DNA from: Dehalococcoidia bacterium
GTDB lineage: Bacteria > Chloroflexota > Dehalococcoidia > SHYD01
NCBI GenBank assembly: GCA_009692945.1
Contig: SHYD01000003.1
Coordinates: 15,459-79,458 of the forward strand
Direction of reading: 5' to 3'
Length of the DNA: 64,000 nucleotides
Both the position numbers and the translations under genes were made by a program. Shown here in pieces: positions 8,415 through 61,432 of this stretch; position 1 is the stretch's first letter, and each line of letters opens with the position of its first letter. The notes below the pieces were generated by a model. The model made no database searches. It was given only the letters and a program-made list of their open reading frames with translations, and was not told the origin of the DNA.

Positions 8415-8557
8415 CCGTGGGGGGTTGTGTCGGTTTTTCGTTCCGTTGCCCCCCCCCCCGAAAAAGAGAGAGTTTTTGTTCTTGGGGGACACCCCCAAGC
8501 CCCCGGCAGGAGGCTTCCCCCCCCCTGCACTCCCCATGTGACCGCGAACCGAGGTCG
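8415..8557 (+). repeat. Interspersed repeat, diverged subfamily copy
   Basis: Contains GAAAAAGAGAGAGTTTTTGTTCTTGGGGGACACCCCCAAGCCCCCGGCAGGAGGC...CTGCACTCCCC. Its closest relative is the copy at 21043-21180. Lies between convergent gene ends. Confidence 0.7.
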
Positions 8558-8635
8558 CCGCATCCACAAGATGTGGGTAACGAATAGCCCTTCGAGGGAG
8601 AGGGGGCCCGAACGAGTCCGAGCCGATATTCGGGG

Positions 8636-11161
8636 TCAGCGGTTGCGCCGGGGCTCCCAGAAGCGGAGCAGCTTGCGGGTAAGTTCCCAGCGGATCTCAG
8701 CCCACGCCATCCGGAGGCGCGTGAGCTCCTCGGCCGTCTGCTGTTGCGGGCTATAGCGCGCCCGGGCGTACTCCCGCGCCACCATCTGAACGCTGATCTG
8801 GGCGTTCGGCAACATGCGGGAAAGCGTTTGAGCGTACTCGTACGGGGTCTGGACCGTCCGGGGCTGGAGCCTTGCCAACCGGGCGAGCCGGCACATCTTC
8901 TCGTAGGTCTGGGCGGGAAAGCCAAGGGACCGCAGGTCCCACATCCATGCGAGCCTGAAGGCGACCCACGCCGCGAGCAATGCGGCGGCCACAAAGCCGA
9001 AGAACTCGACCAGGCGAGAGGAGGCCTGAGCCTCCAAGGCCGCAGCGGCGGCCGCCATTTCCTCTGGGGTCTGTTCGGGTTCCTCTGTGGAGCTTCCCGG
9101 GATATCCTCAGGGAAGTCGTCTTCGATGGTTCCGGACCCCAGGTTTTCAAACGTCCGGGGCACGGTGGGCCAGTTGGGGCTTGGGTTGAACTCGATCCAT
9201 CCGTAGTTTGGGAAGAACACCTCGGTCCACGCGTGGGCGTGGGCCTCCCTTACGACGTACTGCTCCTTGTCTTGGTCCCAATCCCCCGAAACATATCCCA
9301 CGGAAACCCGGGCGGGGATCCCTAACGACCGAAGCATCACCGCCAAAGCGGAAGCATAGTAATCGGCGTATCCCCGGTTCAGGGTGAACAGGAAGTAGTC
9401 GACCCCATCCTGGTCCCGCGGCGGGGCGGGGATGTTGGTGCTGTAGGGGATTTCCCGCAGCCGGGACTCGATGGCCCAGGCCATGTCGTAGGGGTTCCGA
9501 GAGTCCTTGCTCCACTCCCTGGCGCGTTGGCGGACCCGCTCGGTGGTGGTATCGGGCAGTTGGAGGTACTGGTCGAGCGCCCAGCCGGGATACGCCGTTC
9601 CTGACCCTTCCAGCGCTTCGATCGAGGCTTTGGTCACCGAGGACGTGAGGGAATAGGTGACGCCCCGGTTCATGGGCGTCCTGGTCCGTAGGCTGGTGTA
9701 GTCCGGAGGAAACGGGTCGGTCCGGCGGAGAATAACCGCATCGATCTGGCCCTGCCGCCGGATCGGGCGCTCCAGGGCCATATCTGATGGAATCATCCGC
9801 TGCAGTTCGTCGGGCGTAACCAGCCGGTTGGTGTTGCGCAGGTTAACGCTGAGGGTCCGGGCCAGGTCCTGCATGTCGGGGCGGAGGCCGCGGTTCGCGG
9901 TGAGGTCCGCCAACTGCAGGGTGAAGCGGCCAGAAGGAGGCATCTCACCCACGGCGGGTGTGTTTCCAAAAATGGGCATGCCCCGATAGAAGAAGAGATC
10001 GATGGGGATGTTGGTTTCGATGGTTTGTTGCAGGGCCCGGCGCTCTCTGTACTCATCCACGGCGCCACGAACGGTGTCCTGGGGCAACTCGGCGAACTTG
10101 CGATCCGACGCGATCCAACCCTGACCGGTGAACGTATCATAGCTCTCCGCGTGCCAGTAGCCGGACTCCTCCGTCTTGATGTTCATAATGACGTCACGGG
10201 CCAGACCCAGCCGCCCGGCGAGCGACTGCTGGTCGCCAAAGTTCACGGCGCCCCGGAAGGGCATGGAGCGGCCGAAGGAATGGAGCGGGGCGACCTTGCC
10301 CGAGCTCACCGAAGCGAACAACCGGTCGAACTCCCGTTCCATACCGCGCCATGGGCCCGTGGCCTGTTCGAACAGCACCATGATCGGCAGCGACTGCTGG
10401 AAGAGCGGCAGGAAGAAGGTGACGGCCAGCAGACCGCCTGAGAGCGCCAGCAACGGTCCTCCCAGGGAGAGGTCGGCCAGTTCCTGCCGCGAAACGTTGG
10501 TGCGCTTCCAACGCAATTGCAATTGCATCGTGTGCGAAAACATCGTCAGCGCCATTGCCGTGACGACGAACAGCACAAAATTGTAGGTGAAGTTGTTGGG
10601 CAGATAGGTGAGGTTCACCAGCAACGCGATACCTGGGGGTAACATGGCCAGCCAGGCGTTGTGCAGCCGGTAGAAGAACCAGGCGGACAGGTACCCGGTC
10701 AGCCAGGTGAAGATCAACACCTGAACGATGAAAGGGAGGGTATCGACGTTGATACCGCCGTCCCTGATGACCACCGCGAAACTGTTGAGGCGGCTGATGG
10801 CATCGGCCAGGCGGCCGTCGAGGGTGGCGCCCTTGGCGGCGTCGACCGAGGCCCGGGCGACCACCAGGAACCCGATGATCAGGGCGAGGGGGTGCAGCAT
10901 GAACGAGGGCACCCTGAGCTTGGCCATGACGTACCCGACGGCAAGAGAGGCGACGGTGATTCCAGTGAGGCCCGGCATGTCCGGCACCCACTTGGCCCCC
11001 TCCACCGCCCAAACGGTGGCCAAGGACATCAGAAACAGCAGCCCGAAGGGTAGCCACGTTTCGTCGGGCCGGGCCAGAGCACTCCAACCTGATCGAGGCG
11101 CCGGAGGGTTAGGGGCAGCCGACGGGCGACCCCGTTGGCTCTGCCAGGTGGTTGTGGTCAA
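8636..11161 (-). CDS. Transglutaminase-domain membrane protein (TgpA-like, with a DUF4129-like C-terminus)
   Basis: 841 aa with many N-terminal TM helices. Transglutaminase core YADYYASALAVMLRSLGIPARVSVGY...EAHAHAWTEVFFPNYGWIEFNPSP, then a late TM helix and a tail domain. The start overlaps the DUF58 stop by 4 nt. Confidence 0.85.
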   Translation of the reverse strand: MTTTTWQSQRGRPSAAPNPPAPRSGWSALARPDETWLPFGLLFLMSLATVWAVEGAKWVPDMPGLTGITVASLAVGYVMAKLRVPSFMLHPLALIIGFLVVARASVDAAKGATLDGRLADAISRLNSFAVVIRDGGINVDTLPFIVQVLIFTWLTGYLSAWFFYRLHNAWLAMLPPGIALLVNLTYLPNNFTYNFVLFVVTAMALTMFSHTMQLQLRWKRTNVSRQELADLSLGGPLLALSGGLLAVTFFLPLFQQSLPIMVLFEQATGPWRGMEREFDRLFASVSSGKVAPLHSFGRSMPFRGAVNFGDQQSLAGRLGLARDVIMNIKTEESGYWHAESYDTFTGQGWIASDRKFAELPQDTVRGAVDEYRERRALQQTIETNIPIDLFFYRGMPIFGNTPAVGEMPPSGRFTLQLADLTANRGLRPDMQDLARTLSVNLRNTNRLVTPDELQRMIPSDMALERPIRRQGQIDAVILRRTDPFPPDYTSLRTRTPMNRGVTYSLTSSVTKASIEALEGSGTAYPGWALDQYLQLPDTTTERVRQRAREWSKDSRNPYDMAWAIESRLREIPYSTNIPAPPRDQDGVDYFLFTLNRGYADYYASALAVMLRSLGIPARVSVGYVSGDWDQDKEQYVVREAHAHAWTEVFFPNYGWIEFNPSPNWPTVPRTFENLGSGTIEDDFPEDIPGSSTEEPEQTPEEMAAAAAALEAQASSRLVEFFGFVAAALLAAWVAFRLAWMWDLRSLGFPAQTYEKMCRLARLARLQPRTVQTPYEYAQTLSRMLPNAQISVQMVAREYARARYSPQQQTAEELTRLRMAWAEIRWELTRKLLRFWEPRRNR

Positions 11162-12390
11162 GGTGCAGCAGTTCCCCTTTCCTGTCTGGCCCCGGAGCGG
11201 GCGGTCTCACTCACCCCCAAGGACTCGCTGATGGAGCCACCCTGCTTGACGAGAAACGTCTGCACGCCGGTCGCGAGCAGCGCGCTCACCACCTGAAGCG
11301 AGTCCTTCGCCTGACCGAAGGTGCTGCCCTCGATCACCACAGCCGCCACTCTGGCGCCGCGCCGTATCAAATGCTGCAACTGATAGACCCAGGCCTCATC
11401 GGTGGATGAGGTCACCACTAACAGGGTCGAGTACCGCCCGAACCGCCTGGCTTCTCCGGCGAGCAACTCGGCGATGGGAACGGTTCCCTCCGCTTTCGCC
11501 AGCGCCAGCGACTCCATGATCTCCACCAGTTGGTGCCCGCTCCGTTCGGGCTGATGAATATCCAGGTAGTGGCCGAAGCTCATGAACCCGATGGGCCGGT
11601 TCGATTCGATATATTGATGTGCGATGGACGCCGCGACGGTGGCACCGTATTCTTCGGTGCTTTCCAGGTCCTCGCCAACCTGTACGTCCCGGTGCAAGTC
11701 CAGCGCGATCCAGGTTTCGCTGGCTGGATCGAGTTCGAATTCTTTGACCATCAGCCTGCCGGTGCGGACCGTGCTCGGCCAGTGGATACGGTTGAAGCTG
11801 TCGCCGTAAACGTAATCCCGGACCCCGGAGGCATTGGGGGTAACGAAGTGGGTGCGGCGGCGGTGGCGGCCCTCGCCGGGGAGGTCGGCGGGCGGCAGAG
11901 TGAACCCGGTGAGATCGACGGTGCGGGGGTAGACCACCAGCGAGTGGGTGCCGCTCAACGTGATCTGTCTGCGGAAGAGCCCGAACGGATCGCCGCTCGC
12001 TACATGGGTGGGGCCGACCGTGAAACGGCCGCGGCGCTGGCACTCGAAATCGACCCTGATGGTGCGAGAGGCATCGGAGGGGATCTGCAGCACATGAGGC
12101 GGCCACGGGTTGGGGAGGTCGGCTTCCTGGCGCACCTCAGCCCAGACGCTCGGGAGCAGGTTGTCGTTGAACACGGTGAACTGGACCCAAGCCTTTTGGC
12201 CCACCGTCGCCGAGGTGGTGCTTCCCCTGAGGTTGACGGTAATGCCGGATACGCTGAAATGGGTCCAGACCCAGCCCGCCAGCAACACCAGCACCAGCAG
12301 GTAACTCAGGCGGAAGTAGTGGTCTACCCCGGTGGAGAGCCCGAGCACACCGAAGAAAACCGCCACCAGGCTGACCAGCAACACGCGCAT
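11158..12390 (-). CDS. DUF58 domain protein
   Basis: Two N-terminal TM helices. Motif VRDYVYGDSFNRIHWPSTVRTGRLMVKEFE. Sits between the moxR and transglutaminase genes. Confidence 0.85.
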   Translation of the reverse strand: MRVLLVSLVAVFFGVLGLSTGVDHYFRLSYLLVLVLLAGWVWTHFSVSGITVNLRGSTTSATVGQKAWVQFTVFNDNLLPSVWAEVRQEADLPNPWPPHVLQIPSDASRTIRVDFECQRRGRFTVGPTHVASGDPFGLFRRQITLSGTHSLVVYPRTVDLTGFTLPPADLPGEGRHRRRTHFVTPNASGVRDYVYGDSFNRIHWPSTVRTGRLMVKEFELDPASETWIALDLHRDVQVGEDLESTEEYGATVAASIAHQYIESNRPIGFMSFGHYLDIHQPERSGHQLVEIMESLALAKAEGTVPIAELLAGEARRFGRYSTLLVVTSSTDEAWVYQLQHLIRRGARVAAVVIEGSTFGQAKDSLQVVSALLATGVQTFLVKQGGSISESLGVSETARSGARQERGTAAP

Positions 12391-12421
12391 GAGGTGACGC
12401 TCCGTGAGGGCGCCGAATCGC

Positions 12422-13441
12422 CTAGGAGTTCGCTGAGCCGATCCATCGTCCGGCCCGGGCCCCCGGAACCGGCACCTGTTCCAGCACGTCCATCACAATC
12501 TTGTCGGCCGTGATGTCCTTCACCCGCGCGGTGGGGCTCACAATGATCCGGTGGGCCAGCGCGTAGGGCGCCAGGAACTTGATGTCGTCCGGCAAGACGA
12601 AATCCCGGCCCCGCAACAGCGCCAACGCCTGGGATGTCCGGAACAGGGCAAGGGAGCCGCGGGGCGACGCGCCCAGGTAAACGCCCTCGTGGTGGCGGGT
12701 CGCGTCGGCGATCGCGACGATATACTGCTTGACCAGCGCGTCGACATGGATCGCCTTGACAGATTCGTTCATCTTGAGGAGGTCCTCGACCGCCACCACT
12801 TCCTGGAGCGATTCGATGGGATGAACGTGCTGCTGACGGTCCAGAATGGTGACCTCGTCGGTGAGGGACGGGTAGCCAAGGTTCAGGCGCATGAGAAAGC
12901 GGTCGAGTTGGGCCTCGGGCAGCGGGAAGGTGCCCTCGTACTCGATGGGGTTCTGGGTGGCCAGCACCAAGAACGGCCGCGGCAGGGTGTGCAGTTCACC
13001 GTCGATGGTGACTTGGCGCTCTTCCATCGCCTCCAACAGCGACGACTGTGTCTTAGGCGTGGCGCGGTTGATCTCGTCAACCAGCACTATCTGCGCAAAG
13101 ATGGGGCCGGGCCGGAATTCGAAATCGGCTGTTTTTTGATTGAAGACCGACACGCCCGTGACATCACTGGGAAGCAGGTCCGGGGTGAACTGGAGACGCC
13201 GGAAGCTGCAACCCACCGAGCGCGCGATGCTCTTGGCGAGGGTCGTCTTGCCGACACCCGGCACGTCCTCGATGAGCAGGTGGCCTTGGCACAGCAAAGC
13301 GACTACCGCAAGTTCGACCTCGGCACGCTTGCCGACGATGACCTGCTCCACGTTCCCCACAATCTTGTCGACTACGCTGTTGGCCCCAGCTTCCAAAACG
13401 CGCTCCTTTCCCACCATCCGAGGAGCCGTAGATCTGTTCAA
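12422..13441 (-). CDS. MoxR family AAA+ ATPase
   Basis: Walker A DVPGVGKT, Walker [10 protein letters not shown], then [19 protein letters not shown]. Confidence 0.9.
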
Positions 13442-20986: not shown

Positions 20987-21042
20987 CCGGGCGCCGTCTG
21001 AGGCCGTTCGGCAGCGCGTTGCCGTCCAGGGGAGTACGATTT

Positions 21043-21180
21043 CAGACTCGGGGTCGGACACGGGGGTGCAGGGGGCAAAGCCATCCTGCCGGGGGACTGG
21101 GGGTGTTCCCCCAGAAACAAAAACTTCTCTTTTTTCTCGGTGGATGGGGCAAACGGCCGGGACGCAGCCCCCCAAGACTG
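21043..21180 (-). repeat. Interspersed repeat, diverged subfamily copy with clear terminal inverted repeats
   Basis: Ends are CAGACTCGGGG ... CCCCCCAAGACTG. The core is CCGGGGGACTGGGGGTGTTCCCCCAGAAACAAAAACTTCTCTTTTTT. Partner copy at 8415-8557. Confidence 0.75.
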
Positions 21181-21265
21181 AGTAGTTACCCAGGGGACGG
21201 CCCCGCGATCCGTCATCGCCGGGCCGGGTAGAATGAAGGTAGTCCATTCTGCATAGGAGGTTCCC

Positions 21266-27181: not shown

Positions 27182-30100
27182 TTGGAAACTGCCTTCAAGC
27201 TGGCGCTCTTTTTCGCGGTCGCCGCACTCTACCTGGGTATTCTGGGGTACCTGCCCGCGCGCGTGCTGGTGCGGGGAGACGCGGCCAGGCTTCGGTGGCT
27301 CTTTTTGGCCCCCCTCGGGTTCTGCACTTTGGTGGTGCTCTCGTCGTTTCTCAATACCGGGTTCTTGCCGATGAGCCAATTGACCTGGCTCCTGCTGCTC
27401 GCCGGGGCGATTGGGGCGGGTCTCAGCCGCCGCTTCACCGGGTCCACGGGCCTTCCCCGCCCGGGGCGGGTCGAGGGTGCGGTGGCGGCGGTGGCGGTGC
27501 TGGCATTCGCGGTGGGGGTGGCGCCGTTGGTGCAGGCCGGGGCGACCACGTTCATCGGTGTGCAATGGGACCTGGAAATCTACCTGCCCCTCACCGAATA
27601 CCTCAAGCAGTACGTGGCGAACGGGCCTTTCCCGGCCCCGGCCAGCCCCCTGTTGGACAGCGCCAACAGCTTAGCCGTCCGCGGTGGATCGGGGCTAGGT
27701 TTCTCCTATTTCGATGCAGCGATGGGGACGTTGCTCAACTGGCCCTCGGACCAGACGTTCCGGCCGTCGCTCCACGCGCTGCTCGGCCTGACGGCGCCAT
27801 CGGTGTATCTGTTTGCCCGGCTTGGCCTCAAGCTCGCCGCCGCCCCAGCGTTGGCCGCCGCGGGATTGACGGCATGCAACGGGCTCAACCAATGGCTGGG
27901 TGCCATTGGCCTTGCCGGGCATACCGTGGCGCTGGGGTTGTTGCCGCTGGCATTGCTGGGCGTGTTGCTGGTCCTGCGGACCGTCAATTGGCGGGAAGCC
28001 GCCTTGGCGTCGCTCTCCATCGCTGCGATGCTGTTGTGCTTCTACACGGGCGCTGTGGCCGTGTTTGGAGTGGTTGCGGCCGGCGTTGGCCTGGCGCATC
28101 TGCTGACAGCGCCAGAAAAGCGGCGGGTGCTCGCCGCCGGAGGGATGACGCTCCTCGGCGTCGCGAGTCTTGGTATAGTGGCTCATTTCAGGTTCCTGGA
28201 ACTGTTGCCGCTCTACTTCGGCCAGGGGTTCACCGAAGGATGGCACGTCGTCCGCTTCTCCCCCGCCAGCGAGGCGCTGGGGCTTACCACATTCTCCCTG
28301 ATTGTGAACCGGCTCGACGGCACCGCATTCTGGGGGCCAGACCCTGCCCCCGAGTTAGCGGCGTTGGCCACCGGGTTGACGCTGGTGAGCGGAGGGCTTG
28401 GGCTGGTGGCGCTGCTCTCCGGTGGGTGGGACCGCCGCAGCATGGTGGGGCTGGCGGCCGCGGCCTTGGGATTCGCGGTGGTGCTGCGGTTTGGCGCCCA
28501 GTACCACTATGGCTACTTCAAGCTGCTGTCACTAACCTCGTTCATCCCGGCGTGCCTGGTGGCCCAGGGGTTATGGACCGTCTGGCAGCGTGGGGCGTCG
28601 GGCGCCTTTGGCGGCGGCCGGTTGGGGGTCCGCCGTCTGCTCGCATCCGCCTTCGTCATCGCGTTCCTGCCGCTGTTCGTGGCGAACGCCGTTCAAAGCC
28701 TGCGGTTCTTCTGGTCGGCGGATGAGAACGAGCTGCCGCAGGCGGTCTGGGAACTGGGGGCCCTGCGTTCGCTGATCCCACCCGGGGTCCCGGTGTATGT
28801 GGGTGGCCGCTCGTCCTTTGATCCCCGTACCACGGCGATGGTGGCGTATTATCTGCGGGCAAATCCGCTGGTGGGGAGCGTCAAGACGGCGTATGGCGAA
28901 CTCCAGAGCCGGCGTCCGGACGAGTACTTCGCCTACCTGTTGTTGCGGGCCGGGGACAGGCCGGAAAAGCGGGGGTTGACCGGCGCTGATGCCATCTGGC
29001 GAAACGATCTCGCGGTCCTATACCGGCGGCCTCCGGGGTGGCTGTCCGCCGTGGACTTCGAGAGTGTGGCGCAGCCGATGGTGGTCCGGCAGGACGGCGA
29101 ATACCGGGTGGAACTCACCTACAACTCCTGGTCCATTTCCGACGGTCAGCGTTCCTTCGAGGGTTCTCTGCATGCTGCAGCAAACCGGCCTCGTATCGAA
29201 TTATCGCTGCTGAGCATGGGCGAAGGGCGCGCCACCGTCCGGCGGGGCGACGCAGTCGACTCACTGGGGATCGAAGCCGGGCTGCTGAACTACCGATCGG
29301 AACCCGTGACCGCGCCTGGGGTCATGACCCTTCGGATCGATCGCACGGACCGCCCTGCCTGGCTCCTGGGACTGAGGGTAGTCAGCGAATCCGTGGGCGT
29401 GCCGGAGGTCTGGCGCAGAGAAGACCTGCTCTTGCTGCATCCCTCGGCTCAGGTGGTGGGGTCTGAGGCCCGATTGACGCTCGACTATCTGCTGTCGGAC
29501 CCCAAGGGCGGGGACCTCGCGGTGGGAGTCGAGGTGTACCGGCGGGGACGAGACCAGCAGGACCTGCGTCCTATCGACGCATGGCAGATCGTGAAGGAGC
29601 AGGGCGATGGAGATGGCGAGGCGCGCTTTGTGCTCGACGCTTCCGGCTGGCGCTGCGGTGAGGCTTCCGCCCAATTGAACCAAGGAGGGGCGCCCCCGCC
29701 GGATGGGGAGTATGAGGCCCATGTTGCGGTGTACTACCTCGGACTGGAGGTGGCGCGGTGGCCGTGGGTTGCTATCAGCAGGCAGGGGCAGGAAGTCCGT
29801 TTGCAGTTGAGGCCGATGGAGCAATATCACCTGTTGCCCATCCCGCTCCCCACCGATGTTGCGAGGCTGGCGTCGCACATCCCAGATGGACTGAACGTGG
29901 TGGCTCCGGCGGTGACCGACCCCGACAGCGCCTTCATCGCAGTGGCGCGATGGAAATTGAAGGACAGACTGGTCGCTCGGGACCAAACGGCCCTCGATGC
30001 CCCTCTCGTGTTGCTGCCGCGCCGCGAGAGCCCCGGCGACTGGGGACTGGGCGGGGCTGCTGTGGTGTGGCGGAACTCCCAGGCCGTCCTGTACCGGGCG

Positions 30101-40178: not shown

Positions 40179-40259
40179 GTGATGGCCCGAGGCTCAGGTA
40201 GCGCTATTGTAGGCAGCGGTGGCGGCCTGCGTCCAGCGGTGAGGGCGACGGTTTCGGTT

Positions 40260-40418: not shown

Positions 40419-40473
40419 CGACGGCCCGCCGCGTCGCCCGTCTCCCCGCTGCTAGAATGGCCCTTAGGCCCGT

Positions 40474-44041: not shown

Positions 44042-44070
44042 AGAGTACGGACCGCGCTCAAGACCGTCAA

Positions 44071-44162
44071 GAAAAAGAGGAGCATTCTCGGTGAGGGGCA
44101 CCCCCATTCCCCCGGCAGAGGGCTGCCGCCCTCGTGCACTCCCACTCCTGAGCCCGGCCGCC
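44071..44162 (+). repeat. Interspersed repeat, core-only copy truncated at both ends
   Basis: 91/92 identical to the reverse complement of the core of the 45571-45729 copy. Confidence 0.85.
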
Positions 44163-44334
44163 GAATCGGGGGCTCGCTGAGACAACATTTCACTCCCGAA
44201 GGGGTACAATGATGCCCGCGGGCCGGGTTAAGTTTGGTCTCTGCGTCCATTCAAATCAGGATCCCGATCCCTCTGAATCGGCGGTAATCTGTGAAATCTG
44301 TGGATCAACTCCGGTTTTCTCCGCGGAGGCGACG

Positions 44335-45498
44335 ATGCAGCAGTCGAGAATGAAGTTCGGCATCTTCCTGGCGCCCTTCCATCCATTGGGGGAAAATCCC
44401 ACGCTGGCCATCCATCGCGACCTTGAGTTGATCGAGCGGCTCGACGAACTGGGTTACGACGAGGCGTGGGTGGGCGAACACCACAGCGCAGGTTGGGAGA
44501 CTATCGCCTCCCCCGAGGTGTTCATTGCTGCGGCGTCGCAACGGACCCGGCACATCAAGCTGGGGACCGGCGTCGTCTCGCTGCCCTACCATCACCCATT
44601 GCTGGTCGCAGACCGGATGGTGCTGCTGGACCACCTTACCCGGGGCCGGGTGTTGTTCGGCGTTGGACCGGGCGCGCTGGTTTCCGACGCGATCATGATG
44701 GGGATCGACCCGCCCACCCAGCGGCCTCGCATGGAGGAGGCGATGGGCGTCATCTTGCGGCTGTTCACCGAACTCGACCCCGTCGACTATGAGTGCGAGT
44801 GGTTCACCCTGCGCGGCGCGCGTCTCCAGCTCCGGCCGTACACCCAGCCCCACATGCCCATCGCGGTGGCAGCGGTGCAGTCGCCTTCGGGCATGGTGAC
44901 GGCGGGTAAGTTCGGTGCGGGGGTGCTCACCTTCAGCGTCGCCAGGGGCGACGATGCCCCAAGCCTGCAGGAGTTCTGGGGCATCGCCGAGAAAACGGCG
45001 GCGGAACACGGGAAGACGATGGACCGGCGGGAGTGGCGGATCGTGCTGCCGTTGCACCTCGCGGAAACCCGCGCCGAGGCGATGGCCCAGATCCGGGAGC
45101 GGGCCGGCCGTTACCAGGCCGAGTACCGCCGCTCCACGCTGAGCCTCGAGTTGGACGTTGACGCGCCGCCGGAGCGGCTCGCCGAGGAGATGGTGGCGCG
45201 CGACGCCTGGTGCGTAGGCACGCCCGACGACCTGGTGGCCAAGATCCGTGCCTTCCAGGAAAGCAGCGGCGGCTTCGGCGGGCTGATGGTCCAGGCCATC
45301 GATTGGGCGGACCGCGAACACCTGCTGCACAGCTATGAACTGCTGGCCCGTTATGTGATGCCCCATTTCCAGGGAAGTCTCGATGGCTTGGTGGCGTCGC
45401 AGGCGACGGTGGCCGATCAATCCCGCCGGCTCAACGAACTGCGCCTCGCCTCGTTGGCCCGTGCGAGGTCGGATTACGAGCAGCGCCAGCGCGGCTGA
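44335..45498 (+). CDS. LLM-class flavin-dependent oxidoreductase (luciferase-like monooxygenase)
   Basis: ORF 44209..45498 trimmed to the ATG at 44335 after GGAGG. Begins MKFGIFLAPFHPLGENPTLAIHRDLELIERLDELGYDEAWVGEHHS. Confidence 0.85.
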   Translation: MQQSRMKFGIFLAPFHPLGENPTLAIHRDLELIERLDELGYDEAWVGEHHSAGWETIASPEVFIAAASQRTRHIKLGTGVVSLPYHHPLLVADRMVLLDHLTRGRVLFGVGPGALVSDAIMMGIDPPTQRPRMEEAMGVILRLFTELDPVDYECEWFTLRGARLQLRPYTQPHMPIAVAAVQSPSGMVTAGKFGAGVLTFSVARGDDAPSLQEFWGIAEKTAAEHGKTMDRREWRIVLPLHLAETRAEAMAQIRERAGRYQAEYRRSTLSLELDVDAPPERLAEEMVARDAWCVGTPDDLVAKIRAFQESSGGFGGLMVQAIDWADREHLLHSYELLARYVMPHFQGSLDGLVASQATVADQSRRLNELRLASLARARSDYEQRQRG

Positions 45499-45570: not shown

Positions 45571-45729
45571 GGTAGGAGTTCACTGTTGAGGGGGCGGCCG
45601 GGCTCAGGAGTGGGAGTGCACGAGGACGGCAGCCCTCTGCCGGGGGAATGGGGGTGCCCCTCACCGAGAATGCTCCTCTTTTTCCCGGGTTGGGGGGAGT
45701 GGCTCATATCGCTCGAACCCCTGACACTG
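45571..45729 (-). repeat. Interspersed ~160-bp repeat, full-length copy
   Basis: GGTAGGAGTTCACTGTTGAGGGG...GAGGACGGCAGCCCTCTGCCGGGGG...GAGTGGCTCATATCGCTCGAACCCCTGACACTG. Confidence 0.85.
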
Positions 45730-45849
45730 CTGCGGGAAGGCACCCTTTTCATGACCCGGTGGTGTCCCCATGGTCATGGGCGTCTGAATAGATACCCTGG
45801 CTGCGTGGATGTGCTGTCCTTGGCGGAATTTGGTACGTGAGGTGATGCG

Positions 45850-46749: not shown

Positions 46750-47063
46750 TTGAAGCAGGCGTGCAGAGGGCGGCGACCCTTGCCGGGGGTTTTGGGGGGT
46801 GTCCCCATAGGAGTGGGCACCTTTTGAATTCGTGCCTGGATGAGGGCTTTGGGGCGGGGGTGTGCAGAGGGGGCGGAGCCCCTTCTGCCGGGGTGTGGGG
46901 TGTCCCCACACACAAACGAAATGGGCGGGTGGGCGGGAAGTACTGCCTTGGAGGTTGTCCGAGGAGAAACCCGCCCACTCCTAAGGGGTAGCCCCCACAT
47001 AGAATTCTCCTCTTTTTTCCTGGGTTGGAGGGAGTGGCTCATACCCCCGAACCGCTGACACTG
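46750..47063 (-). repeat. Composite of three degenerate repeat cores in tandem
   Basis: Cores at about 46757-46815, 46850-46915 and 46985-47063. The last carries the intact 5' terminus ...GAGTGGCTCATACCCCCGAACCGCTGACACTG. Confidence 0.7.
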
Positions 47064-47168: not shown

Positions 47169-47645
47169 TTGTCCGAAATCATGCAGAGCAGAATGCCTTG
47201 GTTCATCGCTGGGCCGGTCATCGGTCTGTGCGTGGTGGCGTTGTATGCATTGGCCAACCAGCGCCTGGGCGTGACGGGTTCCTATGTACAGGTGGCAAGG
47301 GCCGCCATCGGCGGGCGGGTCGACGAGAAGTGGCGCCTCTGGTTCTTCGCGGGGCTTGGCGGTGGAGCGCTGCTGCTCGCGGTGCTGCGGGGCGGGCCGT
47401 CACCGTCGCTGGCGTACGGAGCGCTCGGAATCCTATTGCCGTTGGGCGTGCTGATCCCGGTGCTGTTCGGCGCCGGGGTGTTGATGGGGTTTGGCGCCCG
47501 CTGGAGCGGAGGCTGCACCTCCGGTCACGGCATCTCGGGGAACTCCTCGTTCTCACCGGCCAGCTTTGTCGCGACGGGAACATTCATGGCCACGGCGGTG
47601 GGGTTGACCCTGTTGCTGCACTGGATCACGGGAGGAACGCTATGA
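47169..47645 (+). CDS. YeeE/YedE family sulfur-transport membrane protein
   Basis: TTG after GAGGAGG. Motif GARWSGGCTSGHGISG. Confidence 0.8.
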   Translation: MSEIMQSRMPWFIAGPVIGLCVVALYALANQRLGVTGSYVQVARAAIGGRVDEKWRLWFFAGLGGGALLLAVLRGGPSPSLAYGALGILLPLGVLIPVLFGAGVLMGFGARWSGGCTSGHGISGNSSFSPASFVATGTFMATAVGLTLLLHWITGGTL

Positions 47646-48151
47646 GGCTGGCGCCGCTGGCGGTGGGGGGCGTGTTCGGGTTCGTGCTGGCTGCGGCCAA
47701 CCTCAGCGACTACACCGTGATCCACGACATGCTGTTGCTGCGGGAGTTCGATGTGTTTTTCCTGATGGGTTCCGCCATCGGCGTGGCCGCTCCACTGCTG
47801 TGGTGGATGGAGCGCCGGCATTGGCGCTCCATGGTGGGGAGCGAGCTGGTGGTCCAGAAAGAGCCCGCGGGTCGTTCCACGGTGGCGGGCGCGGCGCTGT
47901 TTGGCGCGGGGTGGGCCATCGCGGGCACCTGTCCCGGTCCGGCGCTGGTCATGACGGCCGGTGGCAGCCTATTGGGGCTGGTGGTGATGGCTGGGCTGGC
48001 GGTGGGCGCCACCCTGAGGGACCGGGTGACGGGAGTTACCGGTGGTGAGCGGGAGGGGGCGGTCACGCGTGACACACGCGTGAGGGTGTCCGCCAAGAGG
48101 GAGTACCTGACCTCACCAGTTGGGCGGGCGGATGTTACTGAGGCATCCTGA
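47642..48151 (+). CDS. YeeE/YedE-like membrane protein (second half-transporter)
   Basis: ATGA overlap with the upstream gene. Motif GAGWAIAGTCPGPALV. The gene lies inside the longer mis-framed track ORF 47198..48151. Confidence 0.75.
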   Translation: MRLAPLAVGGVFGFVLAAANLSDYTVIHDMLLLREFDVFFLMGSAIGVAAPLLWWMERRHWRSMVGSELVVQKEPAGRSTVAGAALFGAGWAIAGTCPGPALVMTAGGSLLGLVVMAGLAVGATLRDRVTGVTGGEREGAVTRDTRVRVSAKREYLTSPVGRADVTEAS

Positions 48152-48205
48152 CTTTCGCCTCCCACTCCTCCGTGGAATACCCGTGGTCAAACTCCCAAAG
48201 CAGCT

Positions 48206-48964
48206 TTATCCCCACCATATCGTGGGTGCGTCCACCACGATACCGGCGTCGCGCAGGTCTGCCAGGAAGTCGGCGAGCTTCCCGCTTTCGGGCGGCAAAC
48301 GCAGATGGTCTTCGAAACGGTCGTCTTCATGAACGAATTCTATCGTTAACCAGAGCGCCGCTTTGCTGTCGCTCGTGCTTGGCTCGATCGACACGGATCG
48401 GATCGTGCCAAGCACGGACGTCTCCTTCGTTGCCCAGCGCGGCCCGTAATTAACCCGGCTACCAGGGGACCGGATGCCTCGCACCCGGTCATAGTTGACA
48501 ACGAACGTGAACTCCGCGGTGATCTGTCCAGGAGTTAGGACTTGGATCGCGGATGCCTTCAAGAAACGGGCGAGGTCAGTGTCCCTCAAGTCACGATCCC
48601 CGGTGATCAGTGTGTCTGCGTCGCTTGCGATTGCGGTTTCGAGCACCACATCATCTTTGGGGTCTCGGCAGAGGTGGATCAACCCGGGAGTTGGGAAGAT
48701 GGCTGCGGACCGCTGCACTCGCGTCACGAAACCGTGGATTTCCGCAAGCGTCAGGCGGGACCGCACCCGAATCTTGGGGCGAAGCAGCACGTCTTCCAAC
48801 TCGGCCAACAGGGGCTTGCTGGCAACGATTTCGATTTGCCCCAATCCCCAGTAGTGTATGAGGCGGGCAGGCGGGCCGTTGCGATTCAGGAGCGCAGCGA
48901 CCCAGACGTTGGTGTCAACGACGGCTCGCCGCACTCTTCCGAACCTCCTGGACCGCCTGGGCAA
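48206..48964 (-). CDS. PIN-domain toxin (TIGR00305-like) fused to a ~105-aa C-terminal extension of unknown function
   Basis: AVVDTNVWVAALL...LLAELEDVL...DPKDDVVLETAIASDADTLITGDRDL, then an uninterrupted extra ~105 aa. GC is only about 55-60%. Confidence 0.8.
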   Translation of the reverse strand: MPRRSRRFGRVRRAVVDTNVWVAALLNRNGPPARLIHYWGLGQIEIVASKPLLAELEDVLLRPKIRVRSRLTLAEIHGFVTRVQRSAAIFPTPGLIHLCRDPKDDVVLETAIASDADTLITGDRDLRDTDLARFLKASAIQVLTPGQITAEFTFVVNYDRVRGIRSPGSRVNYGPRWATKETSVLGTIRSVSIEPSTSDSKAALWLTIEFVHEDDRFEDHLRLPPESGKLADFLADLRDAGIVVDAPTIWWG

Positions 48965-49193
48965 TCTCAGTCGTCAACTCTTCAGTGGAATCAACAGACG
49001 GGATTCGACTTTGAATCCGTTCCATAAAATCCACAAGCCTCTGCTTCCAAGGTCCATCCTTAGCCAGGCGAACCGCCAGGTAGCTGTCCACAGCTTTTCG
49101 GACCACCTCCGAAGTGGAGCAGCGGTCTTGCGTGGCAAGCAGCTTCAAGGCTTGAATCTGATCGTCATCCAGGTAGATATTGGTGCGGTTCAT
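48915..49193 (-). CDS. Ribbon-helix-helix (CopG/Arc/MetJ-type) antitoxin
   Basis: ORF trimmed to the ATG at 49193 after AAGGAGG. Begins MNRTNIYLDDDQIQALKLLATQDRCSTSEVVRKAVDSYL. Overlaps the PIN gene by 50 nt. Confidence 0.75.
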   Translation of the reverse strand: MNRTNIYLDDDQIQALKLLATQDRCSTSEVVRKAVDSYLAVRLAKDGPWKQRLVDFMERIQSRIPSVDSTEELTTEIAQAVQEVRKSAASRR

Positions 49194-49207
49194 TAGTGTA
49201 CCTCCTT

Positions 49208-49241
49208 GCGGAGAGTATACATCATGATGTATACTCTCCGC
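49208..49241. promoter_or_regulatory. Perfect 34-bp palindrome (candidate TA operator and/or terminator of the upstream mutase gene)
   Basis: GCGGAGAGTATACATCA|TGATGTATACTCTCCGC. It lies 15 nt upstream of the antitoxin ATG and 2 nt after the mutase stop, and contains the -10-like TATACT. Confidence 0.6.
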
Positions 49242-51005: not shown

Positions 51006-51160
51006 GTAAGAGTTCACGATTGAGGGTACCATCGGGCTCAGGAGCGGGAGTGCACGAGGGCGGCAGCCCTCTGCCGGGGGTGTGGGGGTGGCCCCCACAG
51101 AGAATTCTCCTCTTTTTATGGGGTGGGGGGCATGGTTCATGCGGCCGGCCCCTGATTCTG
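51006..51160 (-). repeat. Interspersed ~160-bp repeat, full-length copy (an extra core fragment follows at ~51165-51200)
   Basis: GTAAGAGTTCACGATTGAGGG...GAGGGCGGCAGCCCTCTGCCGGGGGTGTGGGGGTGGCCCCCACAGAGAATTCTCCTCTTTTTATGGGG...CCTGATTCTG. Confidence 0.8.
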
Positions 51161-51301
51161 AACTCATACGTGCGTGAGGGCGGAAGCCCTCCCATACTCT
51201 GAGAGGGCAATCTTCGACTGACGGCGTCTGCCATCATGCAATCTGAAGACCGATCTCGAACCCACCGGCGTAACCGTCGCCTTCTTTCGTCACCGCCACC
51301 G

Positions 51302-52042
51302 TCAGTTGATTGTCGGTCTGGCGGAAAATTCCGTCCCGGGGTTTCTCACATTGCGTTTGCCTCGCGGCGCGTAGGGCGGCAGCAGGTGGACCTGGTCGGA
51401 CACGGCGTCGTCGAAGAAAAGCTGTGATGTAAAATCGAACGTTCGCTGGGAACCGGCGCCGGTCCGTATCTTGAAGTGAATATGCACCGCCCGTCCTGGA
51501 TACCAGCCGGGGTAGATCGTGGTGAAATGTGCCTTCCCCGACCCGTCGGTGAACTGATGGCCTCGTAAGAACTTCTTGCCGGCGGAGTTGGTGCCGGCAT
51601 CGCGGACGTCCGAATAGACCCCGAGCGCCTCACACTGCCACAGGTCCACCTGGGCCCCGGCCAGGGGACTGCAGGCTGCGCCGCGGATTCGGCCGACCGC
51701 AAACGTCAACTTGATCGGTGCGCCTATGCTCACCGATCCATCCACGGGATCCGATCTGATGTCCGACCGGTTGAGCATTTTATCGACAAAGAAAGGCCCT
51801 TCCGCCAGCACCGGCCGGACAATGCAAGAGGGCGCCGATGAGGCCGCTGCCGCAGGGTTGGCTGTTGCCGTTGGAGGGGCGATCGGGCTGGGAGCAATGC
51901 CCGCCGGGAGGGGCGGACTGGCGGATTCAGCGTTGCATGCGGTCGTGAAGAGAACGGCGGCCGGCCCCAGGAGCGCCAGCAACTCTCTCCGATTCAGCAT
52001 CCGGCCCACCGGCCGGTCATCACCGTTTCCCATGACGGCCAC
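51302..52042 (-). CDS. Intradiol ring-cleavage dioxygenase family protein with a Tat-like signal
   Basis: RRELLALLGPAAVLF (twin-arginine) and YPGWYPGRAVHIHFKI. The start is uncertain: GTG 52042, ATG 52033 or ATG 52000. Confidence 0.8.
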   Translation of the reverse strand: MAVMGNGDDRPVGRMLNRRELLALLGPAAVLFTTACNAESASPPLPAGIAPSPIAPPTATANPAAAASSAPSCIVRPVLAEGPFFVDKMLNRSDIRSDPVDGSVSIGAPIKLTFAVGRIRGAACSPLAGAQVDLWQCEALGVYSDVRDAGTNSAGKKFLRGHQFTDGSGKAHFTTIYPGWYPGRAVHIHFKIRTGAGSQRTFDFTSQLFFDDAVSDQVHLLPPYAPRGKRNVRNPGTEFSARPTIN

Positions 52043-52082: not shown

Positions 52083-52874
52083 TTACAACTTCCCCGAGAG
52101 CGAGAGTGATTCCTTCATGCGGTCGGCCAGCGGGCCGGATCCGTCCTCGAACCCGAGCAGCAGTTCGATGCGGCTGGGGGAGCAGGCCCAGACCTGCACC
52201 GGCGGCGCGGTGGCCGCGGCCCCCCGCATCGCGGCCTCCATCGCCTGCATCATCAGCAGCGCGGTGTCGGGCATGGGCGTCTGGGGCGAATGGGGTTTGG
52301 GTTGGAGCGCGCTCAGCGCCCCGGCGAACCGCTCGGCCGCGGTGCCGGCGGCGCTCCAGCCGTGCTCGGTGGCGTGGATCGGCGCGCTGTGGCGCGGGAA
52401 ATTCAGGATGACGGGCTGCTGCTCATTGATGTAGCCCGCCAACAACACCTCGGAGGTGACGTTGAGGGGTGTCTCTGGGGCACGCGACTGCCGGATGCGG
52501 GCGAGGTTGTTGCCGTTGAGCATCGAGAGCCGGTCGGCGAAGTTATCGGTCCACCAGCCGCGGTCGGTGCTCCCCGGCGTCAGTTGCCGGGTGTCCAGCC
52601 GGTCGAAGGCCTGGAGCGATTCGATCCACGCGCGCAGGTCCTTGATGATCCGAACGTCGCCGTTGCCGCCCCACATCACGTTCACGTCGCACAGGCGCTG
52701 CAGCTTCGAGGCTTCATAGGCGCCCAGCGGGTCGGCGGCGTAGGAATCCGATGCGATGAGGATGTGGCCCCGGCAGCGCATCGCGGCGATGAGGCTCATG
52801 GCGTTCTCCCAGGCGGTTTGCCTCGAAATGATAGCATGGCGGGCGGCGGTTGCATCAGCGATGGCCCGCTCCAT
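52083..52874 (-). CDS. Hypothetical protein with HslV/proteasome-beta-like (Ntn hydrolase) sequence features
   Basis: From Met26 (ATG at 52799, GGGAGAA upstream) it reads M-SLIAAMRCRGHILIASDS...ASKLQRL...GGNGD...VLLAGY...AAGTAAERFA. This parallels HslV TTIVSVRRNGHVVIAGDG...KKVRRL... By-eye alignment only. Confidence 0.5.
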   Translation of the reverse strand: MERAIADATAARHAIISRQTAWENAMSLIAAMRCRGHILIASDSYAADPLGAYEASKLQRLCDVNVMWGGNGDVRIIKDLRAWIESLQAFDRLDTRQLTPGSTDRGWWTDNFADRLSMLNGNNLARIRQSRAPETPLNVTSEVLLAGYINEQQPVILNFPRHSAPIHATEHGWSAAGTAAERFAGALSALQPKPHSPQTPMPDTALLMMQAMEAAMRGAAATAPPVQVWACSPSRIELLLGFEDGSGPLADRMKESLSLSGKL

Positions 52875-52966
52875 CCTTTACAACACCCTCGGATGCGGCG
52901 GGGCAGGGCCTACTTCGCCATCCCTAAAGAGTTGCCAACCTCTTGGCAACCCTACACGGCCGACTT

Positions 52967-53019
52967 CGTGCACTCCCACTCCCGAGCTCGGCCGCCCCTC
53001 AACAGTGAATTCTGGCGGG
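52967..53019 (+). repeat. Interspersed repeat, solo 3' part
   Basis: CGTGCACTCCCACTCCCGAGCTCGGCCGCCCCTCAACAGTGAATTCTGGCGGG. Confidence 0.75.
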
Positions 53020-53112
53020 AGCTGCCGGTAGCTTGCGGACGGCAACGGTACCCGCTAAGCTAGGGGCGTTTTCCGGGTAGCACGCTGCCCGATCGCGTGA
53101 AAGGGAGCCACG

Positions 53113-53508
53113 ATGACCAGCACAACACGGAAGCTCGAAGTCCTGGAGGTGCCAGGGGTGGCCCACGGCGTCACTCCGATCCCGATGGCCGTGAAGATCG
53201 GGAACTGCATCATGACTTCGGGCATCGAACCGGTGGACTTGGAGACGGGGAAGCTGGGGGCCACTCCGGAGCGGCAGGCCGAATGGACCTTCGCCCACAT
53301 GAAGACGATCCTAACGCAAGGCGGGGCCACGCTGGACAACGTCGCCATGGTGACGGTCTATCTCCAGCTTCCGGAGTACTACGTACACTTCGAGCGCAAA
53401 TGGCTGGAGACGTTTCCGGATCCCCACAACCGGCCCGCCTGCCGGATCTTCGTCACACCGGAACCCCCGTCGTTATTCGTCCAGGTGCAAATGATCGCCG
53501 TCCTGTAG
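53113..53508 (+). CDS. RidA/YjgF family protein
   Basis: 131 aa, ...AEWTFAHMKTILTQGGATLDNVAMVTVYL... Confidence 0.8.
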   Translation: MTSTTRKLEVLEVPGVAHGVTPIPMAVKIGNCIMTSGIEPVDLETGKLGATPERQAEWTFAHMKTILTQGGATLDNVAMVTVYLQLPEYYVHFERKWLETFPDPHNRPACRIFVTPEPPSLFVQVQMIAVL

Positions 53509-53552
53509 CTGCCGCGACCGATAACCAACTCCTTTCTGGCGCGAGGTTTTGA

Positions 53553-54110
53553 ATGACCGATACCCTTAGAATTCTCGGCATCTCGGGCAGTATCCGGGCT
53601 GGCTCCTACAACCGCTCGGCGCTGAGGGCTTCGGCCGGGTTGGCGCCGGAAGGGATGGACATCGATATCTTCGACCTGGCGCGGTTGCCGATGTACAATG
53701 GCGACCTCGACGGGGAAGCCACGCCACCGGTCGTGCGGGACTTTCAGTCTAGGGTGCGCACCGCCGACGGCCTGTTGGTGGCCACACCGGAGTACCTCCA
53801 CTCGATTCCAGGGGTGCTCAAAAATGCTCTCGATTGGGCTTCGCGTGGCGGCGACAACTCACCGCTGCTTGGCAAGCCGATTGCGATGATGGGCTGTGTC
53901 ACCGGCGCCTCGGGCTCCCGTTGGGGGCAGTACCACCTGCGCCAGATCTGCCATGCCACCGATATGCTCCCCCTCAACCGGCCGGAGATCTACGTCACCG
54001 ACGTGCGCAACAAGTTCGACGACGCCGGCAACCTGACCGATGAATCGACCCGTCAAGCAATCCGGGAGTTGCTGGGGGCCTTCGGCCTCTGGATAGAACG
54101 GCTGCGCTGA
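53553..54110 (+). CDS. NADPH-dependent FMN reductase
   Basis: LRILGISGSIRAGSYNRSAL...LLVATPEYLHSIPGVLKNALDWAS. Confidence 0.85.
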   Translation: MTDTLRILGISGSIRAGSYNRSALRASAGLAPEGMDIDIFDLARLPMYNGDLDGEATPPVVRDFQSRVRTADGLLVATPEYLHSIPGVLKNALDWASRGGDNSPLLGKPIAMMGCVTGASGSRWGQYHLRQICHATDMLPLNRPEIYVTDVRNKFDDAGNLTDESTRQAIRELLGAFGLWIERLR

Positions 54111-54118
54111 GGTCCCCC

Positions 54119-55105
54119 ATGGCACTGCTGCTCTCCGAGCGTGATATCCGTCCCGTTCTGCGGGACATCGCTTTCATGGACGCCGCGATCGATGCGGTCG
54201 AAGCGGTATTCAAGGAGTATGCCCAGAAACTGACCCAGCAACACCCCTGGACCAACCTGCCCTGGCACGGCGATCGAGGCCCATTGCGGCTCTGGTTTGC
54301 CAGCTCGCCTGGAGTGGGTGGGGCGGTGAGGGTCAACTCGATGCTGCCCGGTGGCGGTTCGGCGGCCGACACCCGCTTCATGCTGGTGTTCGATCCGGCG
54401 ACCGGCGCCCTGCGCGGCATCCTCCCTGATGAGGAGTTCAATTACGCCAGGACTGCCGCCCCCGCGGGCGTTGGCGCTCGCCATCTGGCGCCCGCCGGCG
54501 CCGCGATCATGGGCATCCTGGGGGCGGGCAAGCAGGCGCTGATGCAGATTACGGCGATCGCCCGGGCAGTGCCCACCATCAGGGAGGTGCGGGTTTACAG
54601 CCCGACTCCTGCCAACCGGGAACGGGTGGCGGCGCAGGCGTGCGATCGCTTGAGCATCGCCGTCGAACCGGTCGACTCGGCGGAGGAGGCAGCACGGGAT
54701 GCCGATATCGTTGATCTGGCAACCAACAGCCGGACTGCGGTCATCGAGAGCGGATGGATCCGTCCGGGCGCGTTGGTCATTGCGATCTCGAGCAACCAAT
54801 TCCCGCGGGATTTCATCGCCTCCAGCCGCGTTTTCGTCGGGTCGCGTGAAGATCTTCTGTACGGCGCGTTCCGGCGGGAACCGTTCCTGAGCATGATCGA
54901 CGATTCCTCATGGTCGATCGATCGGGTCATCGGCGACCTGGGCGAGGCGGCGCTAGGCCAGGTGGAGGCCCGTACGCGTTCCGAGGATACCGTGTTGTTG
55001 GACATCCCCGGCATGGCGCTTTGGGACCTGGCGGTGGCGCGGGCGTTGTGCGACTGGGCGGATGCACGCAGTATCGGGGTCCGATTTCAGCTCTCTGATG
55101 TTTAG
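54119..55105 (+). CDS. Ornithine cyclodeaminase / mu-crystallin family protein
   Basis: Rossmann motif MGILGAGKQALMQITAI and family-typical length (328 aa). Confidence 0.8.
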   Translation: MALLLSERDIRPVLRDIAFMDAAIDAVEAVFKEYAQKLTQQHPWTNLPWHGDRGPLRLWFASSPGVGGAVRVNSMLPGGGSAADTRFMLVFDPATGALRGILPDEEFNYARTAAPAGVGARHLAPAGAAIMGILGAGKQALMQITAIARAVPTIREVRVYSPTPANRERVAAQACDRLSIAVEPVDSAEEAARDADIVDLATNSRTAVIESGWIRPGALVIAISSNQFPRDFIASSRVFVGSREDLLYGAFRREPFLSMIDDSSWSIDRVIGDLGEAALGQVEARTRSEDTVLLDIPGMALWDLAVARALCDWADARSIGVRFQLSDV

Positions 55106-55157
55106 CCAGGACCGCATCTGCGAAGCAACCAGCCGTTCCAAACCCAGTATCTATAAG

Positions 55158-55315
55158 CAGTGTCAGGGGTTCGTGGGATGAAAGCCACTCCCCCCACCCG
55201 AGGGAAAATAGGGAGAATTATCTGTGGGGGCACCCCCACTTCCCCGGCAGAGGGCTGCCGCCCTCCTGCACTCCCACCCCCGAGCCCGGCCGCCCCTGCA
55301 CAGTGAATTCTTACC
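55158..55315 (+). repeat. Interspersed ~160-bp repeat, full-length copy
   Basis: CAGTGTCAGGGGTTCGTGGGATGAAAGCCACTCCCCCCACCC...GTGGGGGCACCCCCAC...GGCAGAGGGCTGCCGCCCTC...CACAGTGAATTCTTACC. Confidence 0.85.
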
Positions 55316-55559
55316 GAACCCAGGGTGTGACCAGTTGATGTGGGCGTTTTGGCGGCTAGCCGAACCGAGGCGTGACCTGATCTTGTCGAAGGTACCGCCG
55401 GCCGCGTTTATCCCAACAACGGCCGTTGGACACAGCACCTTACCCCACCTCGGTGCCTTCGATGGCCTCAGGCAACGCCCCGCCACCCCAGTCCACGAGG
55501 CCGGTCACTTTACGTTGCCCGGTGTCTAACAACTAGTCACGCCCAAACCCCATGTCAAG

Positions 55560-57096: not shown

Positions 57097-57099
57097 CTT

Positions 57100-58752: not shown

Positions 58753-58796
58753 GACCCCGAGGCATCCACACCCACCGATGCGCCTCCATGGGGTCT
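58752..58796 (+). terminator. Imperfect stem-loop immediately after the rnj stop
   Basis: AGACCCCGAGGCATC...GATGCGCCTCCATGGGGTCT (outer 7 bp perfect). There is no U-tract, so it is weak as an intrinsic terminator. Confidence 0.3.
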
Positions 58797-61353: not shown

Positions 61354-61383
61354 CCCGCTTGTAGGGCGGGCCGTTGGTACAAG

Positions 61384-61432
61384 CTGCACCCCCACTCGTG
61401 AGCCCGCCGCCCCTCAACAGTGAATTCTTACC
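61384..61432 (+). repeat. Interspersed repeat, solo 3' part
   Basis: CTGCACCCCCACTCGTGAGCCCGCCGCCCCTCAACAGTGAATTCTTACC. Confidence 0.75.

Follow-up and report, generated by a model that had tools for sequence, protein, structure and literature searches.

What is the G+C-rich, hairpin-rich repeat that recurs between the genes of a Dehalococcoidia bacterium, and how does it come to be there? In the window, that is the whole 64-kb stretch of contig SHYD01000003.1 analyzed here (G+C about 65%, no tRNA genes), the family occupies 11 loci with nine complete cores, all intergenic and non-coding. A reading made from the sequence alone had described a dispersed, hairpin-rich family of this kind and left MITE-like, REP-like, and structured-RNA explanations open. 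Our analysis favors the first and disfavors the other two: the repeats are most likely MITEs (miniature inverted-repeat transposable elements), that is, non-coding elements with terminal inverted repeats (TIRs) and 8-bp target-site duplications (TSDs), moved by a DDE transposase acting in trans.

All copies listed by the sequence-only reading were recovered by repeat finding, blastn, and an nhmmer profile, and every one lies between Pfam-supported genes, as had been claimed. A covariance model of the core, R1, found the nine complete cores at E <= 3e-13, with the next match at E = 0.03. Full-length copies measure 156-168 bp, the dimeric type C elements of relatives about 200-250 bp, and the copies in the window are concentrated at 40-56 kb (Table 1).

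Ends and target-site duplications of the repeats

In order to define the ends, the termini of nine full copies from four sources were aligned. The loci of the sequence-only reading were right, but its 5' ends fell short: the element starts about 10 nt further upstream. The imperfect inverted termini that it had reported are present, although the true ones, GTAT...TAC, lie outside the 5' ends it had assigned. The aligned copies begin GTAT(G/C)...TCAG...GGGG and end ...GTGAACTCWTAC, the reverse complement of a similar sequence. Their TIRs are imperfect and about 20 nt long (GTAWGAGTTCAS...), and the terminal pattern GTATnnnnTCAGnnnnGGGG is common to types A, B, and C. The complementarity of the TIRs was individually significant (z of 4-5) in 5 of 11 copies, the rest being degenerate.

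The earlier statement that no TSDs exist proved wrong. Perfect or near-perfect 8-bp duplications (6-8 of 8 positions) flank seven of the eight type A copies, and the type B copy carries one as well. Over the eight type A copies, which come from four sources, 53 of 64 positions match, while 20,000 trials of the null gave 16.5 +/- 3.6 with a maximum of 34. The signal was seen at offset 0 only, and it was gone when one flank was slid by a single base. Type C elements, in which two inverted cores lie inside TIRs of the form GTAWnTnCTCAGyCTTsGGG, were seen in L123, L096, and L129; the duplication matches at 7 of 8 positions in L129 and at all six visible positions in L123. What had been called a diverged subfamily corresponds to type B, and one of its two members, 21034-21189, turned out to be a complete element with its own TSD.

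The repeats show the features by which MITEs are recognized, namely a size below about 300 bp, no coding capacity, TIRs, a TSD of fixed length, and multiple dispersed copies. The TIRs and the 8-bp TSDs therefore point to MITEs moved in trans by a DDE transposase. Such an enzyme, encoded elsewhere in the genome, would recognize the TIRs of about 20 nt, cut and paste the element, and leave the 8-bp duplication behind; inserted copies would then act as hot-spots of recombination and indels in the accessory-gene region. That the repeats are instead remnants of local segmental duplication, or chance similarity of low-complexity G+C-rich DNA, without any mobility, is scarcely credible: the clustering of copies at 40-56 kb would fit local duplication, but the copies stand in both orientations with different flanks and a TSD of their own, and about 25 metagenome contigs, besides other Chloroflexota genomes, contain members as well. 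The E-values of the covariance model likewise argue against chance.

A further proposal, that the elements encode a small protein (the MSHSP.PGKK... open reading frame, ORF) or act as intrinsic terminators, is very improbable. Most type A copies do have an ATG followed by about 10 similar codons, and a Shine-Dalgarno-like AAGAGGAG stands upstream of a GTG/ATG in P1, the first of the two conserved hairpins. However, the short ORF changes frame among copies through indels, as the sequence-only reading had noted, and runs into three different frames; of 42 internal gaps, 40 have a length not divisible by 3. Stop codons are scattered over all six frames, and the start-codon position covaries as part of a stem (GCG, TCG, and GAG are also seen). 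The coding hypothesis was rejected. The second hairpin, P2, is stable and G+C-rich as a terminator would be, but neither hairpin is followed by a T-run, and divergent promoter regions hold many of the copies. At 40-56 kb there are 11 terminator-like sites, no more than in shuffles, and not one coincides with an element.

The conserved two-hairpin core

All subfamilies have in common a core of about 55 nt, which consists of a purine tract, P1 (NNNGGGG-ACA-CCCCNNN), a linker (nCCCCG), P2, and a tail (ACTCCC). P2 is a 9-bp helix, GCAGAGGGC-TGCC-GCCCTCTGC, i.e. GCAGAGGGC/GCCCTC(g)TGC. The palindromes noticed earlier are real, but the two mutually exclusive hairpins proposed for this region reduce to the single conserved P2 helix. 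Variants can retain this helix and no longer form the CGGCAG/CTGCCG alternative. Independent variants that do so are CCAAGGGGC/GCCCCTTGG, CCAGCGGGG/CCCCGCTGG, and GCAGGGGGC/GCCCCCTGC.

Covariation was found in both helices. In an unfitted MAFFT alignment of 23 copies, P1 showed four to five pair types at three positions and P2 one compensated pair, and the covariation score was reached by none of 500 shuffles. When 55 distinct copies were aligned to the model, an alignment that leans towards the model, 94% of cells were paired, compared with about 50% in slid controls, and compensatory changes were found in 10 of 16 pairs. The loops of P1 and P2 both tolerate insertions of 20-35 nt. A putative closing helix between the purine tract and the pyrimidine tail was dropped after a test of cognate versus non-cognate duplexes (P = 0.68). 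Folded as a whole, the element forms a multibranch hairpin closed by the TIRs; the z-scores are modest (-3.3 and -2.4).

The core evolves three to four times more slowly than the arms. Type A copies diverge by 5% in the core and by 20-21% in the arms; for the four copies of the window the figures are 9% and 25-34%. Private substitutions were half as frequent in the core as in the arms (Fisher P = 0.01). One force behind this uniformity may be gene conversion between copies. Segments 44071-44162 and 45593-45684 are inverted and 99% identical over 92 nt, while other copies of the family are 78-85% alike, which suggests recent gene conversion or an invertible segment; the segment coincides exactly with the core region, an indication that conversion is among the forces that homogenize the cores. 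These inverted repeats bracket a complete luciferase-like monooxygenase gene (44209-45498).

These properties raise the alternative that the P1-P2 core functions as a structured RNA, be it a multicopy small RNA or a cis-acting element, that every copy is transcribed and its hairpins work on the RNA, for instance in transcript stability, processing, or regulation, and that the MITE is only its vehicle. The strong covariation in both helices, the conservation of the unpaired ACA loop, CCCCG linker, and ACUCCC tail, the long loop insertions (in L073, L091/L115, and L084), the slow evolution of the core with private substitutions included, and its presence in several Chloroflexota classes would all fit. 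We nevertheless consider this distinctly unlikely. All arrangements of copies relative to flanking genes are seen, the elements contain no promoter or terminator consensus, and neither strand is favored by an excess of G.U over A.C pairs (38:28, or 20:27 without the terminal pair). In one core of the type C element of L129, the P1 loop has TGT in place of ACA, a loop inversion that is the behavior of a DNA palindrome. The closing helix is unsupported, and the slow evolution could come from gene conversion. With Rfam families the core shares two covarying helices, conserved unpaired residues, and variable loop insertions; it differs from them in that no model matches, no strand asymmetry is seen, and no genomic context is consistent. 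A scan with Rfam 15 (4227 models) gave no match in the window at gathering thresholds, and in permissive mode (window 40-56 kb plus 12 related loci) it gave only irrelevant matches below threshold, in keeping with the earlier reading, which had recognized no named family.

Our best guess, made with much less certainty than the MITE assignment, is that the core is a strand-neutral module acting at the DNA level, which the element needs or benefits from. It could be a binding site for the transposase or for a host protein.

Occurrence and gene-content differences among relatives

We then asked how far the family extends. Among species-representative genomes, true members with an exact 19-mer of the core were confined to three, each from Chloroflexota: a Lake Baikal Dehalococcoidia metagenome-assembled genome (MAG; L017, with three full copies within 8 kb), a MAG of Ktedonobacteraceae (on five contigs), and another Chloroflexota MAG. 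A metagenome scan with an 18-mer returned 104 loci, about 25 with true members and the rest unrelated hairpins; many matches in other phyla were terminator-like hairpins and were discarded as false positives. Related Dehalococcoidia MAGs from groundwater and lakes carry members of subfamilies A, B, and C. No match was found in viral contigs, nor in plasmids by BLAST with either the element or the core, and neither the core sequence nor MITEs of Chloroflexota turned up in searches of the accessible literature.

The core is also found without MITE arms, in Ktedonobacteraceae and in Chloroflexota contigs from soil metagenomes, sometimes in tandem. Tandem arrays were seen in L073, L003, L015, L084, and at 46751-46925 of the window, and in a soil subfamily the core lies within an unrelated inverted repeat of about 25 nt (ATATCAAATCCG...CGGATTGGATAT). 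In L073 (1773-2026), three head-to-tail units with periods of 71 and 95 nt run up to the contig end, and in two of them the P2 loop carries a hairpin insertion of about 25 nt with the stem intact. In the Ktedonobacteraceae MAG (L003:2070-2324 and L007:1-440), extra P2-plus-tail modules with other loops (e.g. GCAGAGGGTGGGTGCCCTCTGCTCTCCCGC) follow complete cores, which suggests that the P2/tail unit can multiply on its own.

Such arrangements bring to mind repetitive extragenic palindromes (REPs) and bacterial interspersed mosaic elements (BIMEs), and the core units might be multiplied in a similar manner by a REP-associated tyrosine transposase (RAYT; Y1 HUH) on single-stranded DNA, the TIR-bearing forms being secondary. 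A REP is defined as a single imperfect palindrome of 20-40 nt tagged by GTAG or CGTC, and GTAG-type REPs have been reported in Chloroflexi (PMC3733652). Like REPs and BIMEs, the cores are extragenic, G+C-rich, strand-neutral hairpins in high copy number, which occur as single units, head-to-tail arrays, and inverted pairs, and the core-only units have neither TIRs nor TSDs. They differ in that the unit is larger, about 55-70 nt, with two distinct hairpins and conserved linkers, and lacks a GTAG or CGTC tag. Full-length copies moreover have TIRs and 8-bp TSDs. HUH/Y1 transposition is not known to produce 8-bp duplications. No Y1 transposase was found in the window or among 76 neighboring proteins, and no RAYT among the proteins examined. 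This origin is thus quite improbable. An integron attC array was also considered and rejected: orientations are mixed and no integrase is present.

Evidence for mobility comes from the comparison of the window with its relatives. L122, which comes from Hainich groundwater and is a 97% relative (nucleotide identity about 91%), lacks two segments that the window has: a 1.08-kb segment with a dioxygenase-like gene and copy 51006-51169, and a 2.47-kb segment at about 52851-55322 with three genes, fragment 52959-53016, and copy 55147-55314 with its TSD. The last of these copies forms the right-hand edge of its segment. In both cases, homology to L122 restarts 0-1 nt outside the 3'-side TSD copy. 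Copy 51006-51169 abuts the -35 box of a conserved promoter (TTGACG-17-TATGAT) of the methylmalonyl-CoA mutase (MCM) gene. No copy was found in the 21.6-kb MCM region shared by L124 and L125 (near-identical loci from two assemblies; 82% MCM identity).

The spacer between the GT2 and SIMPL genes was informative in another way. It holds a type B element in the window and the same element in a 98% relative, whose contig breaks inside it. L129 has a type C element there, flanked by a TSD of its own, and L130 only the 3' half of a type A element. Each lineage has a different member of the family in this spacer, inserted independently of the others. In the comparison of filled and empty sites proposed earlier, occupancy differed among relatives, and no clean empty site was among them: L126 stops 12 nt short of the site in question, and the GT2-SIMPL spacer is filled in all relatives compared. 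Several relatives' contigs end in or beside an element.

A toxin-like PIN-domain gene (48206-48964; region 48057-49238) is present in the window and missing from L122 and L123, where MCM is directly followed by the sulphur-transport gene or genes, and no MITE lies at this indel. The dioxygenase-like gene missing from L122 (51302-52042, minus strand) has an apparent frameshift near its 3' end, with a plausible C-terminal continuation in another frame (51240-51310) to a TGA at about 51234. DUF6691/Sulf_transp is a single 317-aa ORF in the window (47198-48151) and two adjacent genes (154 and 158 aa) in L123 (2081-3018), reflecting either a gene fusion or split, or a difference in gene calling.

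As shown in Table 1, full copies, fragments, and core-only units coexist in the window. The breakpoints of truncated copies (46985, 52959, 61385, and L130:3353-3429) tend to fall within P1 or P2 or at the base of these hairpins, which hints that the hairpins promote deletions. By Pfam, genes beside copies encode Rieske/LigXa oxygenase, an MFS transporter, luciferase-like monooxygenases, MCM, a dioxygenase-like protein, OCD, TauE, FtsK, GT2, and SIMPL. The truncated type B copy at about 8428-8557 sits in the gap between two convergent, paralogous MoxR(AAA_3)-DUF58 clusters (2626-8366, plus strand, and 8636-13441, minus strand), one with VWA/BatA/TPR genes and the other with a transglutaminase-like gene, which are joined by a weak 93-nt inverted match (3449-3541 / 12538-12630). 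Elsewhere, a 1128-aa ORF without a Pfam match (27182-30568) lies in a stretch at 26-32 kb with strongly negative AT skew, beside PMT_2-like and glycosyltransferase genes.

Table 1. Copies of the putative MITE family and related units; positions without a prefix are those of the window, and matches give identical positions between the two flanking 8-bp sequences.
Feature	Position	Strand	Flanking sequences and matches	Evidence
Type A, full length, 165 bp	40251-40415	+	GGGCGACG / GGGCGACG, 8/8 (at 40243-40250 and 40416-40423)	blastn, core model, TIR, TSD
Type A, full length, 167 bp, 5' TIR degenerate	45572-45738	-		repeat finding, core model
Type A, TIRs best preserved (GTATGAGTTCAGAATCAGGGG / GTAAGAGTTCACGATTGAGGG)	51006-51169	-	TCACGCAC / TCGCCCAC, 6/8	TIR alignment, TSD
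Type A, 168 bp	55147-55314	+	CAAACCCA / CGAACCCA, 7/8	TSD, L122 comparison
Type B, full, 156 bp, TIRs GTAACTACTCAGTCTTGGGG / GTACGATTTCAGACTCGGGG	21034-21189	-	TCCCCTGG on each side, 8/8	core model, TSD
Type B without both TIRs; core 8467-8540	~8428-8557	+		nhmmer, core model
Internal fragment (purine tract, P1, P2, tail), no arms	44069-44162	+		
5' half of type A, 5' TIR intact (GTATCTTTTCAG), broken inside P1	46985-47072	-		
Core-only unit lacking MITE arms, P1 of soil type (GGGGACACCCC); first of head-to-tail pair	46852-46925	-		
Core-only unit; second of head-to-tail pair, 101 nt from first	46751-46824	-		
Type A 3'-terminal fragment, P2 3' arm to 3' TIR	52959-53016	+		
Type A 3'-terminal fragment, last letters are the TIR ...GTGAATTCTTAC	61385-61431	+		
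Solo 3' TIR (CCTCAAATGTGAACTCTTAC)	2328-2349	-		
P2-like hairpin remnant (GAGGGCTTCCGCCCTC), directly 5' of copy 51006; weak call, E = 0.03	51176-51191	-		
Copy L017a			CCGCCGGC, 8/8	
Copy L017b			GAGACGGC, 8/8	
Copy L096			AGCTACCG, 8/8	
Copy L044			TATTTCTT / TATTTTTT, 7/8	
Type C, two inverted cores in one TIR pair	L129:5729-5927			
Type C, two inverted cores in one TIR pair	L123:7-256			
Type C, two inverted cores in one TIR pair	L096:8039-8277			

A candidate mobilizer and comparison with known systems

IS66 insertion sequences have inverted repeats of 20-30 bp starting GTAAGCG and 8-bp direct repeats, and have been reported mostly from Proteobacteria (PMC11946415); the inverted repeat of one of them, ISPsk01, reads GTAAGCGTCCGG... 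(PMC12888890). The repeats described here likewise have 8-bp direct repeats and terminal inverted repeats of about 20 nt starting GTAA or GTAT, and the terminus GTAAGAGTTCAC has 8 of its first 12 nt in common with that of ISPsk01. In contrast, their termini read GTAAGAG, GTATGAG, GTAGGAG, or GTAACTA and do not match the canonical GTAAGCG heptamer in full. The 8-bp duplication, the GTAA/GTAT ends, and the likeness of the inverted repeats therefore point to the IS66 family, which may supply the mobilizing enzyme. We keep this assignment tentative because a TIR-pair scan of about 0.8 Mb found no autonomous element with matching TIRs, and because 8-bp duplications are also made by other IS families. 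As the sequence-only reading had stated, the window holds no transposase: none of its Pfam-annotated ORFs has such a domain, and no IS66 TnpC or accessory gene was seen. Beside 61 cores outside the window (the 76 neighboring proteins mentioned above), no recurrent protein family or transposase was found.

Together with the missing partner and the ambiguity of the duplication length, several observations weigh against the repeats being MITEs of a DDE transposase. About half of the copies have degenerate TIRs, the full copy 45572-45738 has no TSD (1 of 8 positions), and none was detectable for the soil subfamily with ATATCAAATCCG... arms. The core-only units, tandem arrays, and soil subfamily are evidence that the core does not need the TIR system to spread or persist, and a conserved structured interior is not normally needed by DDE-type MITEs. 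A clean empty site, with a single TSD copy and no element, was found in none of the relatives compared; the polymorphisms seen are larger indels or other elements in the same spacer. We nevertheless hold to the MITE assignment at the strength given at the outset.

Among known systems, the Correia/NEMIS elements of Neisseria and the ERIC/IRU elements of Enterobacteria come closest. These are likewise 100-250 bp long and non-coding, with imperfect TIRs and a target duplication of fixed length; they occur in many intergenic copies in either orientation, can fold as a long hairpin, and are linked to genome rearrangement, and their internal conservation suggests secondary functions. The Chloroflexota elements belong to another phylum and show no sequence similarity to any described element. 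Their TSD is 8 bp, while the target duplication of Correia elements is TA. They are most conserved in the internal two-hairpin core and not at the termini, and this core is found without TIRs around it as well, and in further classes of the phylum. The family fails the definitions of REPs and BIMEs, intrinsic terminators, attC arrays, and all Rfam families.

A broader reading of the core, which we regard as unlikely, is that P1-P2 is an undescribed, selectively maintained, structured nucleic-acid module of Chloroflexota, either an RNA motif or the DNA site of a dedicated protein, that travels in several vehicles: the three MITE subfamilies, the soil subfamily, whose arms are unrelated, the tandem arrays, and the inverted dimers. 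If so, the core would have a role at the host level, for example in nucleating the gain and loss of accessory genes, and would not be mere MITE filler; such a role is suggested because two copies lie exactly at gene-indel junctions.

In summary, our results provide a first concrete description, with ends, TSD, subfamilies, and a covariance model, of what is most likely a MITE superfamily in uncultured groundwater and lake Dehalococcoidia. The covarying and deeply conserved core offers a defined target for asking if mobile repeats bring with them an RNA or DNA module that has a function. The repeats break metagenome assemblies, and copies mark the borders of accessory-gene gain and loss, so that their recognition helps the curation of MAGs and studies of genome plasticity in a poorly known phylum.

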